A stretch of DNA of 64,000 nucleotides. Origin: Escherichia coli (lineage in GTDB: Bacteria; Pseudomonadota; Gammaproteobacteria; Enterobacterales; Enterobacteriaceae). A program made the position numbers and the translations under genes. The stretch lies in NCBI RefSeq assembly GCF_030384885.1, contig NZ_CP128613.1. The stretch is one strand, 5' to 3'. Of the stretch, positions 55,081 through 64,000 are shown piece after piece. The first letter of the stretch is position 1, and each line of letters starts with the position of its first letter. Below the pieces are notes generated by a model, which saw only the letters and a program-made list of their open reading frames with translations, ran no database searches and had not been told where the DNA came from.

Positions 55081-55202
55081 TCCGCTTCCCCACGTCTTCT
55101 TCGTGATGACTATCTTAACCCGATTTGTTAGAAGCTCCACTAAAATGGCTAAAAACTCGCAATTTCATCGGGTTATCAAATGCTCTGTGATCATTATCGC
55201 AT

Positions 55203-55224
55203 ATCAACCAACTAGATGGTTGAT
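55203..55224. promoter_or_regulatory. Palindromic operator candidate between ytfA and the accessory operon
   Basis: ATCAACCA-actaga-TGGTTGAT perfect 8-bp inverted repeat; adjacent CRP-like half-site pair TGTGA-N6-TCGCA at 55186-55201. Confidence 0.55.
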
Positions 55225-55291
55225 CTTTCTTGCCACACATTGCAAGCTAATCGTCACTTAAGGAAATAATATTCAAAAAGAGGGTTATTGT

Positions 55292-56083
55292 ATGAAGTCA
55301 ACACGTCCTGTTGCTGTCATCACTGGAGCCGCACGTGGTATTGGAAAGGGCTGTGCACTGGAACTTGCGCGTGGCGGATTTAATCTGCTGATTAATGATC
55401 GTCCGGATGCCGACAGCGTAGAAAAATTACATGCCACACAACAAGAATGTCTGGCGGAAGGCGTGGAAGTGATTTGCTTCCCTGCTGATGTTGGCGATCT
55501 CTCCCTTCATGAAGAGATGCTCGACGCGGCGCAAAACCAGTGGGGACGTCTGGACTGTCTACTCAACAACGCAGGCATTTCAGTGAAAAAACGCGGTGAC
55601 CTCCTCGACCTCGAACCAGACAGCTTCGACCAAAACATTGCCATTAACACCCGTGCGCCGTTCTTCCTTGCTCAGGCATTCAGTAAGCGATTACTGGCAC
55701 AGCCGAAACCGGAAGCAGAACTGCCGCACCGCTCGATTATTTTTGTCAGTTCCATAAACGCCATCATGCTGGCGATGAATCGCGGCGAATATACCATTGC
55801 CAAAACTGCCGTCTCCGCCGCAGCTCGTCTGTTTGCCGCTCGCCTTTGCAATGAACAAATTGGCGTTTATGAAGTGCGCCCTGGCCTAATCAAAACCGAT
55901 ATGACCATTCCGGCAACGGCTTATTACGACGAACTGATTGCTAAGGGGTTAGTGCCGTGGGGACGTTGGGGTTATCCGGCTGATATTGCCTCAACGGTCC
56001 GCGCGATGGCGGAAGGCAAACTGATTTACACCTGTGGTCAGGCGGTCGCCATCGACGGCGGCTTAAGTATGCCGCGCTTCTGA
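55292..56083 (+). CDS. Short-chain dehydrogenase/reductase (putative 3-hydroxyacyl dehydrogenase)
   Basis: 263-aa ORF with TGAARGIGKG NAD(P)-binding motif; first gene of the operon. Confidence 0.8.
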   Translation: MKSTRPVAVITGAARGIGKGCALELARGGFNLLINDRPDADSVEKLHATQQECLAEGVEVICFPADVGDLSLHEEMLDAAQNQWGRLDCLLNNAGISVKKRGDLLDLEPDSFDQNIAINTRAPFFLAQAFSKRLLAQPKPEAELPHRSIIFVSSINAIMLAMNRGEYTIAKTAVSAAARLFAARLCNEQIGVYEVRPGLIKTDMTIPATAYYDELIAKGLVPWGRWGYPADIASTVRAMAEGKLIYTCGQAVAIDGGLSMPRF

Positions 56084-56092
56084 GGCTGAATC

Positions 56093-61370: not shown

Positions 61371-61847
61371 ATGCGAAATATAATCAGATCTATTAATTCA
61401 TTGCTTTCCACGTTGAACATTACCATTTTGGCAATTATTGTGATGTGCGTTACATGGCAAGTAGTAGCACGATTTATCTTTAAAAGCCCCAGCATTTTTA
61501 CAGATGAACTTAGTCGTTTACTATTTATTTGTCTTGGACTTTTTGGTGGTGCTTATACTGCCGGACAAAACCGACATCTGGCCATTGATCTTCTGCCAAT
61601 GATGCTAAAAGGAAAATCCCGACGTTATTTATTCTTATGTATTCAGGCCATTGTTATTCTTTTTGCCTCTATCATTATGGTTTATGGTGGCGGGTTATTA
61701 ACACTGGACACATTTGATTCAGGGCAAACTTCTCCGGCTTTAGGCTGGCAGATGGGATATATTTACATGAGCATTCCAATAAGTGGCATCCTTATTATTA
61801 TATACACCATAGATACAGTTTTAACCGAACTTAAACAACCACTCTAA
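61371..61847 (+). CDS. TRAP transporter small permease (DctQ family)
   Basis: About 158 aa, four hydrophobic helices; ATG 61371 chosen over the TTG at 61353. Confidence 0.75.
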   Translation: MRNIIRSINSLLSTLNITILAIIVMCVTWQVVARFIFKSPSIFTDELSRLLFICLGLFGGAYTAGQNRHLAIDLLPMMLKGKSRRYLFLCIQAIVILFASIIMVYGGGLLTLDTFDSGQTSPALGWQMGYIYMSIPISGILIIIYTIDTVLTELKQPL

Positions 61848-61869
61848 AATAAGTAGGGATGGAGAAAAC

Positions 61870-63171
61870 ATGGATTACTGGTTACCGATCATTGTGTTAT
61901 TTGGTTCTTTCTTTTTTATGTTGGCATTAGGTGTTCCTATTGTCTATGCTATTGGTTTATCAACACTGGCATCAATTACTACACAACTCGATTTCAACTC
62001 AGCATTGAGTGTGGTTTCACAAAAGTTAGCCTCCGGGTTAGATAGTTTTACGTTGTTGGCAATCCCATTTTTTATCTTGTCTGGCAACATTATGAATCAT
62101 GGAGGAATAGCGCGACGATTAATCAACTTTGCCCGTATTCTCGGCGGTCGTCTGCCAGGCTCACTTGCTCACTGTAATATTCTTGCCAATATGCTGTTCG
62201 GGGCAATTTCTGGTTCAGCTGTTGCTTCGGCGGCTGCGATGGGCGGCGTCATGCATCCACAGCAGGTTAAAGAGGGTTACGACCCGGCATTCAGTACCGC
62301 TGTTAACGTTGCCTCTGCACCGACAGGTTTACTTATTCCACCCAGTAATACGTTAATTGTCTTTTCACTGGTCAGTGGTGGTACTTCTATTGCCGCACTG
62401 TTCCTGGCAGGATATGTCCCGGGAATTTTATTGGGCCTGGCGCTGATGACTGTGGCTGGTATTATCGCGGTACGCCGGGGTTATCCAAAACCAGAACGTC
62501 CGACTTTGCGCCAGGCTGGAGTGGCAATATGGATGGCGATCCCCAGTATTTTCCTGATTGTATTAATTATGGGTGGTGTACTAAGCGGTATTTTTACCCC
62601 GACAGAAGCATCTGCAATTGCGGTAATTTATACCCTTTTCCTTGCACTGGTTCTTTATCGTGAAATATCAGTTAAAGATTTACCTAAGATATTTCTGGAG
62701 TCCGTCATTACCACTGCAATTGTCTTGTTGTTAATTGGTTCTTCAATGGGAATGTCATGGGCAATGTCAAACGCTGACGTTCCCTTCCTGATTCTCGATT
62801 TGCTTAACACTATTTCTGATAATCCAATAATAATCCTGCTTATTATCAATATTATTCTGTTGATTATCGGCACATTTATGGATATGACACCGGCAGTACT
62901 GATTTTTACGCCGATATTTTTACCCGTTGTCACCGAACTGGGCATGGACCCGATTCACTTTGGTATTGTCATGGTACTGAACATGTGTATCGGTATTTGT
63001 ACTCCGCCTGTAGGCAGTGTGTTATTTGTCGGTTGTAGTGTATCTAAATTACCGATTAATAAAATTATCAAACCTATGCTGCCCTTCTATGCCGTGATGG
63101 TATTGGTGCTGGCTATGGTGACCTATATTCCGCAAATCAGTATGGCATTGCCAAGAGCACTGGGCTACTGA
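61870..63171 (+). CDS. TRAP transporter large permease (DctM family)
   Basis: 433-aa 12-TM ORF typical of DctM. Confidence 0.88.
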   Translation: MDYWLPIIVLFGSFFFMLALGVPIVYAIGLSTLASITTQLDFNSALSVVSQKLASGLDSFTLLAIPFFILSGNIMNHGGIARRLINFARILGGRLPGSLAHCNILANMLFGAISGSAVASAAAMGGVMHPQQVKEGYDPAFSTAVNVASAPTGLLIPPSNTLIVFSLVSGGTSIAALFLAGYVPGILLGLALMTVAGIIAVRRGYPKPERPTLRQAGVAIWMAIPSIFLIVLIMGGVLSGIFTPTEASAIAVIYTLFLALVLYREISVKDLPKIFLESVITTAIVLLLIGSSMGMSWAMSNADVPFLILDLLNTISDNPIIILLIINIILLIIGTFMDMTPAVLIFTPIFLPVVTELGMDPIHFGIVMVLNMCIGICTPPVGSVLFVGCSVSKLPINKIIKPMLPFYAVMVLVLAMVTYIPQISMALPRALGY

Positions 63172-63223
63172 TGCGCATTCACTGGCGGCTCCTGCCGCCA
63201 TATTTATTAGAAAAGGAACATCT

Positions 63224-64000
63224 ATGAAAATAAAAGTATCCGCTGGCATTATCGGTGCTGTTCTTATGTTATCTGCAGGCCAGTCCTGGGCAGTAACATT
63301 AAAACTTAGCCATAATCAGGATAAATCTCATCCTGTTCATAAAGCGATGGAGTTCTTTGCGAAAAAGAGCAAAGAGTACTCTAACGGTGATATTACTATT
63401 CGTATTTATCCAAATGGAACATTGGGTACTCAACGAGAAACAATGGAGCTGATTCGTTCTGGTGCTATTCCGCTGGTAAAAACCAATGCGGCGGAGATGG
63501 AAGCCTTCGAGAGTTCGTATAAAATATTTAGCCTGCCTTATTTGTTCCGCGATCGTGATCATTATTATCAGGTCATGCAAGGCGATATCGGAAGGAAAAT
63601 CCTCGACTCAACGAAAAACAAAGGTTATTTCGGTCTGACTTTCTATGATGGAGGCGCCCGCAGCTTCTACGGCAATAAACCGGTGCTGAAACCAGACGAT
63701 CTCAAAGGAATGAAAGTTCGTGTCCAGCCAAGCCCAGGGGCAGTTGAGATGATCAAAGTCATGGGAGGTAACCCAACACCGCTGGATTATGGAGAGTTGT
63801 ACACAGCATTGCAGCAAGGTGTGGTTGATATGGCGGAAAACAGTGTGATGGCGCTGACCACCATGCGCCACGGTGAAGTAGCAAAATCCTTCAGCCTTGA
63901 CGAACACACTATGGTTCCTGATGTGGTTCTAATGAGCAATGCTTCGTTTGATAAGCTTAGCCCGGAAAATCAGGCAGCTATATTAAAAGCAGCTAAAGAA
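63224..64000 (+). CDS. TRAP transporter substrate-binding protein (DctP family), 3-prime end outside the window
   Basis: Open frame from ATG 63224 (AAGGA RBS) to the window end; signal peptide MKIKVSAGIIGAVLMLSAGQSWA and DctP-like sequence. Confidence 0.85.
   Translation, partial: MKIKVSAGIIGAVLMLSAGQSWAVTLKLSHNQDKSHPVHKAMEFFAKKSKEYSNGDITIRIYPNGTLGTQRETMELIRSGAIPLVKTNAAEMEAFESSYKIFSLPYLFRDRDHYYQVMQGDIGRKILDSTKNKGYFGLTFYDGGARSFYGNKPVLKPDDLKGMKVRVQPSPGAVEMIKVMGGNPTPLDYGELYTALQQGVVDMAENSVMALTTMRHGEVAKSFSLDEHTMVPDVVLMSNASFDKLSPENQAAILKAAKE

Follow-up and report, generated by a model that had tools for sequence, protein, structure and literature searches.

A probable operon for CoA-assisted acid catabolism around an uncharacterised flavoprotein family, common in Escherichia coli and invisible in K-12

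Which compound is degraded by the eight genes that stand divergently from ytfA in many Escherichia coli genomes, and by what chemistry? We addressed this question for a stretch of 64,000 nucleotides from an E. coli assembly (GCF_030384885.1, contig NZ_CP128613.1), hereafter the window, in which an earlier note, made from the letters alone, had recognised a beta-oxidation-like gene set with a tripartite ATP-independent periplasmic (TRAP) transporter. Our analysis takes these genes to be a coenzyme A (CoA)-assisted acid-catabolic operon, which is built on an uncharacterised flavoprotein family and is common in E. coli but invisible in K-12. That the operon functions in acid catabolism we consider very probable, and that its substrate is a sugar acid of the hexuronate type we regard as an even call. 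The operon has been overlooked because the reference strain K-12 deleted it, and once its substrate is named, models of how strains differ and how they colonise the gut would gain a further niche, either a nutrient or an electron acceptor.

Gene products and the flavoprotein family

The operon and its divergent regulator comprise the following genes.

54433-55080, minus strand: TetR-family regulator (an intact "ytfA"), divergent from the operon; RefSeq TetR/AcrR regulator, 215 amino acids
55292-56083, plus strand: short-chain dehydrogenase/reductase (SDR), 263 amino acids
56093-56935, plus strand: xylose-isomerase-like TIM barrel (AP_endonuc_2), 280 amino acids
56945-57721, plus strand: crotonase, 258 amino acids
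57731-59272, plus strand: fused family-I CoA-transferase of the YdiF/FadX type, 513 amino acids
59269-61350, plus strand: soluble FAD flavoprotein of the SdhA/FrdA/NadB superfamily, 693 amino acids
61371-61847, plus strand: TRAP small membrane subunit (Q)
61870-63171, plus strand: TRAP large membrane subunit (M)
63224-64000, plus strand, cut by the window end: TRAP substrate-binding protein (SBP; P), of which the complete gene in the identical genome NZ_CP027579 encodes 323 amino acids

All eight plus-strand genes next to the TetR gene are present and intact in both the list of open reading frames (ORFs) and the RefSeq annotation, with the SBP gene running past the window end. Counted from the RefSeq starts, the gaps along the operon are 9, 9, 9, -4, 20, 22, and 52 bp, which matches the earlier note's description of eight co-directional, packed genes with gaps of 3-50 bp and one ATGA overlap. 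Here, the -4 gap is an ATGA in which the stop codon of the CoA-transferase gene overlaps the start codon of the flavoprotein gene, and the two genes are translationally coupled in the window. Moreover, a purine-rich stretch resembling a ribosome-binding site lies upstream of every operon gene start. RefSeq gives the operon products generic names, and our profile, structure, and motif checks agree with the families that had been assigned to all eight genes.

The SDR matches NCBIfam PRK12745 at 420 bits (cut-off 250) and shows the full catalytic tetrad, with TGAARGIG at 11-18, Asp36 at the end of β2, NNAG at 92-95, Ser153/154, and Tyr167-x3-Lys171. By the usual rule for SDRs, Asp36 makes it probably NAD-dependent rather than NADP-dependent. 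For the TIM barrel, the nearest structures are those of the uncharacterised S. meliloti protein SMc04130 (PDB IDs: 3ju2 and 3qc0; E 9e-86), and the curated NCBIfam matches, to IolO (5-keto-L-gluconate epimerase), fructoselysine 3-epimerase, and hydroxypyruvate isomerase, are weak, none being better than E 1e-6. Its candidate metal ligands (E146, D185, H210, and E254) form the pattern expected for the metal site of this fold, and we predict a metal-dependent epimerase, isomerase, or eliminase that acts on a keto-sugar or keto-sugar acid.

In the crotonase, both catalytic glutamates are present (GGGIE115L and PE135). Many enoyl-CoA hydratase (ECH) models in NCBIfam match it, none at equivalog level, and its nearest solved structure is a 3-hydroxypropionyl-CoA dehydratase (PDB ID: 5zai; E 2.6e-40). 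The CoA-transferase is closest in the PDB to E. coli YdiF (PDB ID: 2ahu; E 6e-116) and scores 384 bits against NCBIfam FadX, under the model cut-off; it carries Glu324 in EQG and GPGGF at 389-393. No NCBIfam model of equivalog rank could be assigned to the TIM barrel, crotonase, CoA-transferase, flavoprotein, or the alternative transporter described below. From the beta-oxidation set, the operon therefore has an enzyme that forms an acyl-CoA and a two-glutamate enoyl-CoA hydratase. It encodes no flavoenzyme of the acyl-CoA dehydrogenase (ACAD) family, its sole flavoprotein having the SdhA/FrdA fold, and there is no thiolase gene between ytfA and rplI. For the 3-hydroxyacyl-CoA dehydrogenase step, the SDR with its complete tetrad is a candidate at most, as its subfamily is also found in clusters that have no CoA enzymes. 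The scheme of activation, desaturation, hydration, and oxidation that the earlier note had proposed thus keeps its CoA-transferase and its crotonase, lacks the ACAD and the thiolase, and stands unproven as a whole.

Against NCBIfam, the flavoprotein gives just distant matches to NadB, TfrA, and SdhA, far under their cut-offs. Its own family takes in about 417 clusters (50% identity) at E<1e-30 among 1.84 billion representative proteins, with mostly full-length members that are 35-55% identical. The AlphaFold2 model (pLDDT 88.8, pTM 0.92) has the four-domain fold of the superfamily and the FAD-binding Rossmann motif GSGAAG at 48-53, and a Foldseek search matched it over its whole length to SdhA/FrdA (E ~1e-29, TM 0.6-0.8) at 15-19% identity, with NadB, AprA, and PAPS reductase ranking below. 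On motif inspection, we noticed H437 (in QHMNGG) and R469 (in RPGG), which we take to be the equivalents of H355 and R390 in FrdA. Presumably, SGSDKQT stands in the place of the covalent-FAD histidine motif and QFG in that of the Q-[FY]-H-P-T motif, and these changes would fit a monocarboxylate substrate rather than a C4-dicarboxylate. No Fe-S or membrane-anchor partner subunit is encoded nearby. The flavoprotein founds an uncharacterised family of its own within the SdhA/FrdA/NadB superfamily.

To place this family in its genomic company, we scanned 80 flavoprotein loci, with one genome per species, and clustered the neighbouring ORFs and annotated their representatives. The recurrent neighbours were these.

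SDR: 26 of 74 related loci
Gfo/Idh/MocA dehydrogenase (levoglucosan-dehydrogenase-like or IolG-like): 25 loci
two GMC oxidoreductases: 22 and 21 loci
LacI regulator: 21 loci
sugar ABC transporter: about 20 loci
KdgK-like PfkB kinase: 11 loci
AP_endonuc_2 TIM barrel: 11 loci
aldehyde dehydrogenase: 9 loci
Eda-type aldolase: 8 loci
reductase like old yellow enzyme (OYE): 7 loci
second AP_endonuc_2 subfamily, upstream of the OYE: 3 loci

Short metagenomic contigs with flavoprotein homologues likewise show PfkB, Eda, and LacI neighbours. The neighbourhoods point to a stable core of a nicotinamide-dependent dehydrogenase, a TIM barrel, and the flavoprotein, set in carbohydrate or sugar-acid catabolism. 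Since OYE-type partners are adjacent to the flavoprotein in 7 loci and fused to it in the homologue P0155, a natural OYE::flavoprotein fusion, this protein may, by analogy, work as a reductase rather than a desaturase. The family spans carbohydrate-catabolic clusters of Planctomycetota, Lentisphaerota, Verrucomicrobiota, Alpha- and Betaproteobacteria, and Firmicutes, and a single functional assignment would propagate widely.

Most flavoprotein loci lack the CoA-transferase and ECH genes, and the homologues that are 52-59% identical to the flavoprotein of the operon mostly have no CoA enzymes nearby. In Brenneria, TetR-SDR-TIM-flavoprotein is followed by a PcaK/MhpT-like transporter of the major facilitator superfamily (MFS) with neither CoA gene, and the same SDR subfamily recurs in other clusters without CoA enzymes. 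Phytobacter-type clusters combine the SDR-TIM-flavoprotein trio with a Gfo/Idh/MocA dehydrogenase and an MFS transporter of the aromatic-acid/H+ symporter type. The E. coli gene order plus MaoC is found in a Rhodocyclaceae metagenome-assembled genome (MAG), as TetR-MaoC-SDR-TIM-ECH-CoA-transferase-flavoprotein-TRAP. A betaproteobacterium has CoA-transferase-ECH-TRAP-MaoC-ACAD-EtfBA-TIM-flavoprotein, in which the ACAD resembles acryloyl-CoA reductase. CoA-transferase and ECH genes also lie near the flavoprotein in Rhodobacter (Gfo-flavoprotein-KdgK-CoA-transferase-ECH-aldehyde dehydrogenase) and Devosia, and alongside it in a Desulfobacterales MAG. In another genome, the position of the flavoprotein is occupied by an ACAD, which adjoins SDR, DUF993, TIM, ECH, and CoA-transferase. 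ACADs were found in just some of the related loci and are most similar to acryloyl-CoA reductase and cyclohexanecarboxyl-CoA dehydrogenase. Judged by these gene arrangements, the CoA module is a recurrent and functionally linked add-on to the flavoprotein core.

Two further arrangements of the family were observed. About 24 alpha-proteobacterial loci (Rhizobium, Devosia, and many Rhodobacteraceae) assemble a sugar ABC transporter, two GMC oxidoreductases, a Dabb-domain protein, and an LgdA-like Gfo/Idh/MocA dehydrogenase with the flavoprotein, a KdgK-like kinase, and LacI, and many of them add an aldehyde dehydrogenase resembling betaine-aldehyde dehydrogenase; from its gene content, this conserved cluster looks like an uncharacterised pathway in which a neutral sugar or glycoside would be oxidised to an acid before the flavoprotein step. 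In MAGs of Phycisphaerae/Sedimentisphaerales (three loci), which are anaerobic PVC bacteria, the flavoprotein is flanked by Eda, a BNR_4 beta-propeller, an MtnA-type gene (methylthioribose-1-phosphate isomerase family), and a large OYE::GltD-like fusion, an unusual combination that hints at a deoxy- or thio-sugar context.

Control, distribution and loss from K-12

The regulator has the features of a local repressor of the TetR type, with a TetR_N helix-turn-helix and a ligand domain, a position divergent from the operon, and a palindromic candidate operator. Its orthologues carry Pfam TetR_N and TetR_C_29, and its best NCBIfam match, a weak one, is to the acyl-CoA-binding FadR of Bacillus (E 1.7e-11). 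Two sites stand out between the TetR and SDR genes.

55186-55201: CRP-like site TGTGAtcattaTCGCA (TGTGA-N6-TCGCA), directly upstream of the palindrome
55203-55224: palindrome ATCAACCA-actaga-TGGTTGAT (N6 spacer), in full ATCAACCAactagaTGGTTGAT, a putative TetR operator

The palindrome occurs once in the 64 kb, where 0.02 occurrences would be expected by chance. Alignment of the window with two other E. coli, K. oxytoca, K. huaxiensis, and Salmonella across the stretch between the TetR and SDR genes showed CAACCAAC[T/C]AGATGGTTGATCTTT to be invariant and the sequence flanking it heavily diverged. An invariant palindrome within diverged flanks is the signature of an operator, and this palindrome is the probable operator of the TetR protein. 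The CRP-like site is the sole TGTGA-N6-TCRCA match in the 64 kb (0.34 expected). Its GTGA-N8-TCAC core is kept in Klebsiella and Salmonella, where the right half-site has the consensus TCACA. The suggestions that the palindrome mediates local repression and that the CRP-like site hints at catabolite control, both made from the window alone, are thereby strengthened by an invariant footprint and by conserved half-sites across genera, and we infer that TetR and CRP bind here. A sigma-70 consensus scan of the TetR-SDR intergenic region found no promoter, which would fit an activator-dependent one; the operon promoter is placed in this region presumptively. Inspection of the promoter region, by eye only, revealed no FNR-type site. 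In the window, the TetR gene follows cycA, fklB, and ytfB, of which ytfB (plus strand, ending at 54449) converges with the TetR gene (minus strand, ending at 54433) such that their 3' ends overlap by 17 bp.

Among 5,426 complete E. coli genomes, the five-enzyme core was at least 80% covered in 3,114 (57%), the full query including TRAP was found in 1,447 (27%), and an alternative MFS transporter gene in 1,686 (31%). Although it occurs this widely in E. coli, and also in Salmonella and Klebsiella, the eight-gene operon with its divergent regulator has been assigned no substrate. Its position between ytfB and rplI is shared by K. oxytoca and Salmonella enterica (both with the MFS form) and by K. 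huaxiensis (with the TRAP form). This shared site in the three genera indicates that both site and operon are older than the genus split, and the operon core is probably ancestral in E. coli; the word "accessory", by which the earlier note had described it, understates its spread. The window itself (positions 54400-64000, and probably its whole length) is 100% identical to E. coli 2013C-4282 (NZ_CP027579) and has about 92% nucleotide identity to most other E. coli. Because only 32 of 5,417 matching records reach at least 95% identity, its source is a divergent Escherichia lineage filed as E. coli.

Compared with another E. coli genome at about 92% nucleotide identity, the proteins are 87-99% identical: 97-98% for the SDR, TIM barrel, crotonase, and CoA-transferase, and 87% for the flavoprotein, which shares 77-79% identity with the homologues from Salmonella and Klebsiella. 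The operon genes are shown by this to be under purifying selection.

The TRAP and MFS forms exchange at a fixed place. On the left, identity between them breaks 12 bp before the flavoprotein stop codon (window 61338-61371), and on the right, past the window end, the junction of both cassettes is a 27-bp inverted repeat just beyond rplI, where the K-12 allele rejoins too. The enzyme genes have a GC content of 0.49-0.55, and the lower values of the TRAP genes (Q 0.37, M 0.44, and P 0.45) point to a separate origin of the TRAP cassette. This exchange is a clean natural case of transporter cassette replacement in one operon.

In the K-12 strain C600, just the 3' 402 bp of the TetR gene are left, with the RefSeq remark "missing N-terminus". 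After this truncated ytfA comes a 102-bp relic, which matches an inner segment of the SDR gene (window ~55381-55482) at 81% identity, followed by about 1 kb with yjfZ that has no counterpart in operon-bearing genomes. Since the SDR relic and truncated ytfA remain, and Salmonella and Klebsiella have the operon at this very site, the sequence comparison leads us to conclude that K-12 lost the operon by deletion and replacement. It bears out the earlier note, according to which K-12 has no such operon and a truncated ytfA, as would fit a deletion in its lineage.

Several observations on the K-12-type and other derived alleles may be added. The SDR relic appears to be unannotated in K-12. In O157:H7-type and other genomes, the TetR remnant is split into two annotated pieces by IS609, an element of the IS200/IS605 family with tnpA and the RNA-guided endonuclease InsQ/TnpB. 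The yjfZ gene (DUF2686) is present in 2,539 of the 5,426 complete genomes (47%) and absent from the operon-bearing genomes that we inspected; the operon and yjfZ counts (here 3,152 and 2,539) sum to more than 5,426, and a few hundred genomes must have both. Recently, yjfZ was proposed as a conserved signature gene of all E. coli and Shigella for water monitoring by quantitative PCR (2024, PMC11057252), an assay that would miss about half of the strains. Read-through fusions of CoA-transferase and flavoprotein (1,043-1,078 amino acids) occur in some E. coli, and partial flavoproteins in Shigella dysenteriae. Many Shigella and some E. coli have a TIM-barrel variant of about 70% identity that is truncated to 207 residues.

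Substrate, mechanism and alternatives

Which acid enters the pathway is best approached through its transporters. TRAP M matches the NCBIfam dctM model at 460 bits (cut-off 268), and TRAP P the dctP model at 246-252 bits, above the cut-off; TRAP Q has just a weak match to YiaM (E 8e-10, under the cut-off), and its orthologues carry Pfam DctQ. The nearest solved structures of the SBP (PDB IDs: 4ovr, 4x8r, 4n15/4n17, and 4n8y; E 1e-67 to 1e-71) include 4X8R with bound glucuronate and 4N8Y with galacturonate, and Bamb_6123 (4N15), Apre_1383 (4N91), and Bpro_3107 (4MHF) are all binders of glucuronate or galacturonate (PMC7660916, PMC11668362). Beyond Escherichia and Klebsiella, the closest relatives of the SBP are 53-62% identical and belong to Vibrio, Aeromonas, Photobacterium, Providencia, and Gallibacterium, and aligned examples from uxaC-uxuB-uxuA-kdgK clusters of Vibrio and Aeromonas are 53-57% identical. 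The loci of Vibrio panuliri and Aeromonas veronii are textbook glucuronate clusters, both with UxaC, mannonate oxidoreductase, UxuA, a PfkB kinase, and a GntR regulator; Eda was called just in the A. veronii locus, and that of V. panuliri adds a GH2 enzyme of the beta-glucuronidase type.

In an alignment of operon-type and uxu-linked SBPs, R146, R166, and N206 are invariant, and N31-Q32 and D233 are kept in the operon-type and most of the uxu-linked proteins. Glucuronate in STM3169 is described as being contacted by Arg150, Arg170, Asn210, Asn35, Gln36, and Asp237, and, assuming a constant offset of four residues, the six SBP residues would correspond to these contacts. R166 would then be the conserved arginine with which DctP-type binding proteins hold the carboxylate of their ligand. 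The operon-type SBPs of E. coli, K. huaxiensis, and the Rhodocyclaceae MAG are 76-81% identical to each other. By sequence, the SBP belongs to the hexuronate TRAP clade, and we predict that it binds a hexuronate. The alternative MFS transporter matches the D-galactonate/anion:cation symporter subfamily at 315 bits, under the 395-bit cut-off. This family holds carriers of hexuronates, glucarate, and galactonate. With a hexuronate-clade TRAP system or an acid-type MFS carrier in the operon, the earlier proposal of an imported organic acid holds good.

We thus favour, at evenly balanced confidence, a repressor-controlled catabolic operon whose substrate would be a hexuronate or a close derivative of glucuronate that is degraded in part through CoA thioesters. 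The sugar-acid reading follows from the SBP clade, its relatives in uxu clusters, the Arg/Arg/Asn triad, and the KdgK, Eda, LacI, and Gfo neighbours of the flavoprotein. In such a pathway, TetR would repress the operon through the palindrome until an intermediate, possibly a CoA ester, binds the repressor, and CRP-cAMP would activate transcription. A hexuronate-like acid, imported by the TRAP or MFS system, would have a keto group made or consumed on its skeleton by the SDR, and the TIM barrel could exploit this group for epimerisation, isomerisation, or beta-elimination, which are the chemistries typical of the AP_endonuc_2 fold. The FrdA-fold enzyme might reduce or form a C=C bond, or oxidise a C-H bond, beside the carboxylate. 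The YdiF-type transferase would activate the carboxylate as a CoA thioester, and the two-glutamate crotonase would add or remove a beta-hydroxyl. As happens with carnitine, the CoA could then be passed back to a new molecule of substrate, and the product would exit through housekeeping enzymes encoded elsewhere, either 2-keto-3-deoxygluconate (KDG) kinase and Eda or thiolases. Any one particular order of these steps is, at best, unlikely to be the right one.

Several points weigh against a hexuronate. E. coli already degrades glucuronate and galacturonate by the Ashwell pathway, and a second route needs a rationale. The SBP identity of 53-57% is borderline for shared specificity, and the operon-type SBPs differ from the uxu-type nearby, with S207 for N, M204 for G, and F140 for Y, such that the ligand may be a relative of glucuronate and not glucuronate itself. 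No lyase, thiolase, kinase, or aldolase is encoded in the operon, which leaves the exit of the pathway outside it. Moreover, the trios of Brenneria and the Phytobacter type pair with MFS transporters of the aromatic-acid/H+ symporter type, the ACADs in related loci fit alicyclic or short-chain acids equally well, and the nearest solved relative of the crotonase acts on a C3 substrate. We also found no paper that ties any operon gene to a substrate.

Extended beyond this operon, the hexuronate proposal would describe a CoA-dependent route in most E. coli and in Salmonella and Klebsiella lineages, built on the new flavoprotein family and representing an "oxidise, eliminate, reduce" module that is spread across phyla, and in this wider form we hold it as tentative. 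Its substrate could be iduronate, 4-O-methyl-glucuronate, or a deoxy- or unsaturated uronate from host or dietary glycans.

Alternatively, the operon could serve as a reductive electron sink in the manner of the cai or acrylate pathways, with a beta-hydroxyacyl-CoA being dehydrated and the resulting enoyl-CoA or enoate reduced by the FrdA-fold enzyme, the acid acting as an anaerobic electron acceptor. This proposal concerns the redox direction and fits either substrate class. FrdA-fold enzymes of facultative anaerobes typically reduce alpha,beta-unsaturated carboxylates, which speaks for it, and the OYE-like partners of the NAD(P)H type, adjacent in seven loci and fused in P0155, suggest by analogy that the flavoprotein step runs as a reduction. 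It also gains from the betaproteobacterial locus in which CoA-transferase, ECH, TRAP, MaoC, an acryloyl-CoA-reductase-like ACAD, and EtfBA stand beside TIM and flavoprotein, from the membership of the CoA-transferase in the YdiF/propionate-CoA-transferase family, from the crotonase being nearest to 3-hydroxypropionyl-CoA dehydratase, and from the translational coupling of CoA-transferase and flavoprotein. However, the E. coli operon encodes no electron-donor partner (OYE, ETF (electron transfer flavoprotein), Fe-S, or cytochrome), no FNR-type site could be seen by eye in the promoter region, the CRP-like control suggests carbon catabolism, and many homologues are found in aerobic alpha-proteobacteria beside oxidases and dehydrogenases. 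We consider the electron sink rather unlikely.

A different substrate class is offered by hydroaromatic or alicyclic ring acids, of the quinate, shikimate, dihydroshikimate, or hydroxycyclohexanecarboxylate type, which would be degraded as CoA thioesters in a manner like the bad/ali pathways or the conversion of shikimate to cyclohexanecarboxyl-CoA. Here, CoA activation would be followed by flavin-dependent (de)saturation, (de)hydration by the crotonase, and oxidation by the SDR, with the TIM barrel as a ring dehydratase like IolE or dehydroshikimate dehydratase. The enzyme set suits a sequence of activation, (de)saturation, hydration, and oxidation, and a PcaK/MhpT-like symporter follows TetR-SDR-TIM-flavoprotein in Brenneria, with similar MFS carriers in Phytobacter-type clusters. 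The ACADs of related loci score 263-303 bits against cyclohexane-1-carbonyl-CoA dehydrogenase models, and shikimoyl-CoA chemistry with an FAD-dependent enzyme exists, to go by the title of a reference cited in PMC13304725. A pyranuronate is, moreover, nearly isosteric with a polyhydroxy-cyclohexanecarboxylate, and a glucuronate-clade SBP could conceivably be retuned. Yet this SBP keeps the hexuronate triad, and its closest relatives outside such operons are in uxu/uxa clusters, just as the flavoprotein homologues are mostly beside KdgK-like, Eda, LacI, and sugar ABC genes. Furthermore, none of the models for IolE or dehydroshikimate dehydratase matches the TIM barrel at E<=1e-5, and the operon encodes neither a ring-cleaving crotonase of the BadI type nor any aromatic-ring enzyme. 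A ring acid therefore seems improbable to us.

Finally, that the SDR-TIM-flavoprotein and CoA-transferase-ECH modules are adjacent by chance, or that the locus is a decaying, functionless remnant, is very improbable, for although the trio stands without the CoA genes in Brenneria and many other taxa, about 43% of complete E. coli genomes have lost the locus, and truncated TIM proteins, partial flavoproteins, and a CoA-transferase-flavoprotein fusion occur in Shigella and some E. coli, Escherichia, Salmonella, Klebsiella, and the Rhodocyclaceae MAG all preserve the order of the five genes, the ORFs are intact in the window with their catalytic residues present, four of the five enzymes are more conserved as proteins than the DNA is (~92% nucleotide identity), the operator sequence is invariant across genera, and CoA-transferase and ECH recur beside the flavoprotein in unrelated lineages.

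Comparison with characterised systems

The enzyme combination of the operon is matched by none of the characterised systems with which we compared it. In the literature, we found no study that describes the operon, including under ytfA/yjfZ, TRAP systems of E. coli, SMc04130, PDB 7VPF, and CoA esters of sugar acids or shikimate. The TRAP system in the paper on strain BEN2908 was considered and rejected as a candidate, being at a different locus (ygiQ-ftsP).

The Ashwell pathway with TRAP uptake through an STM3169-type SBP shares the SBP clade and the ligand triad with the operon, and homologues of the flavoprotein neighbour KdgK-like and Eda genes. However, that pathway uses UxaC, UxuB, and UxuA, and an NCBIfam search found the UxaC, UxuB/UxaB, and UxuA/UxaA families absent from the operon, whose enzymes belong to other families and bring in CoA chemistry. 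The pathways for 3-keto-glycosides, levoglucosan, and inositol have in common with it a nicotinamide-dependent dehydrogenase and an AP_endonuc_2 TIM barrel, and LgdA- or IolG-like genes lie beside flavoprotein homologues. Unlike the operon, these pathways have neither an FrdA-fold flavoprotein nor CoA enzymes.

Among the soluble, NADH-dependent enoate reductases that combine OYE-like and FAD_binding_2 domains (for fumarate, acrylate, cinnamate, and urocanate), the FAD_binding_2/FrdA fold is shared, and an OYE partner occurs in some flavoprotein lineages. The resemblance of the operon flavoprotein to FrdA/SdhA is limited to 15-19% identity, and no OYE or FMN_bind partner is present in the E. 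coli operon. Presumably, two histidines of FrdA are missing from it as well, the one that binds FAD covalently and the one in Q-[FY]-H-P-T.

For a sugar acid degraded as a CoA thioester in a beta-oxidation-like manner, there is a precedent within the Enterobacteriaceae, in that Klebsiella michiganensis degrades deoxyribonate via acyl-CoA intermediates (Price et al. 2019, PMC6365646). We considered and rejected the operon as the E. coli version of this pathway: the deoxyribonate cluster has a CoA synthetase, a 3-hydroxyacyl-CoA dehydrogenase, a thiolase, a glycerate kinase, a lactonase, and a CoA-transferase of a different type, and is without the FrdA-fold flavoprotein, the TIM barrel, and the crotonase, all three of which the operon has (PMC6365646).

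Within E. coli K-12, the CoA-transferase has a full-length homologue in YdiF, with the family-I glutamate and the GxGGF motif in common. The ydiF-ydiO-ydiQRST-fadK neighbourhood, like the operon, combines CoA activation with a flavin-dependent redox enzyme. There, an ACAD works with ETF, and the operon instead has the flavoprotein of the SdhA/FrdA fold, to which it adds its own acid transporter and the SDR, TIM-barrel, and crotonase enzymes; what the ydi cluster acts on in the cell is not settled either. For the part made up of CoA-transferase, ECH, and flavoprotein, the closest functional analogy would be caiTABCDE, with its CoA transfer, beta-dehydration, flavin-dependent reduction, and CoA recycling. 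In the cai system, these steps rely on CaiB, a family-III transferase, and on CaiA, an ACAD that uses FixABCX, whereas the operon has a family-I transferase, the FrdA fold, an added SDR and TIM barrel, and a substrate of another class.

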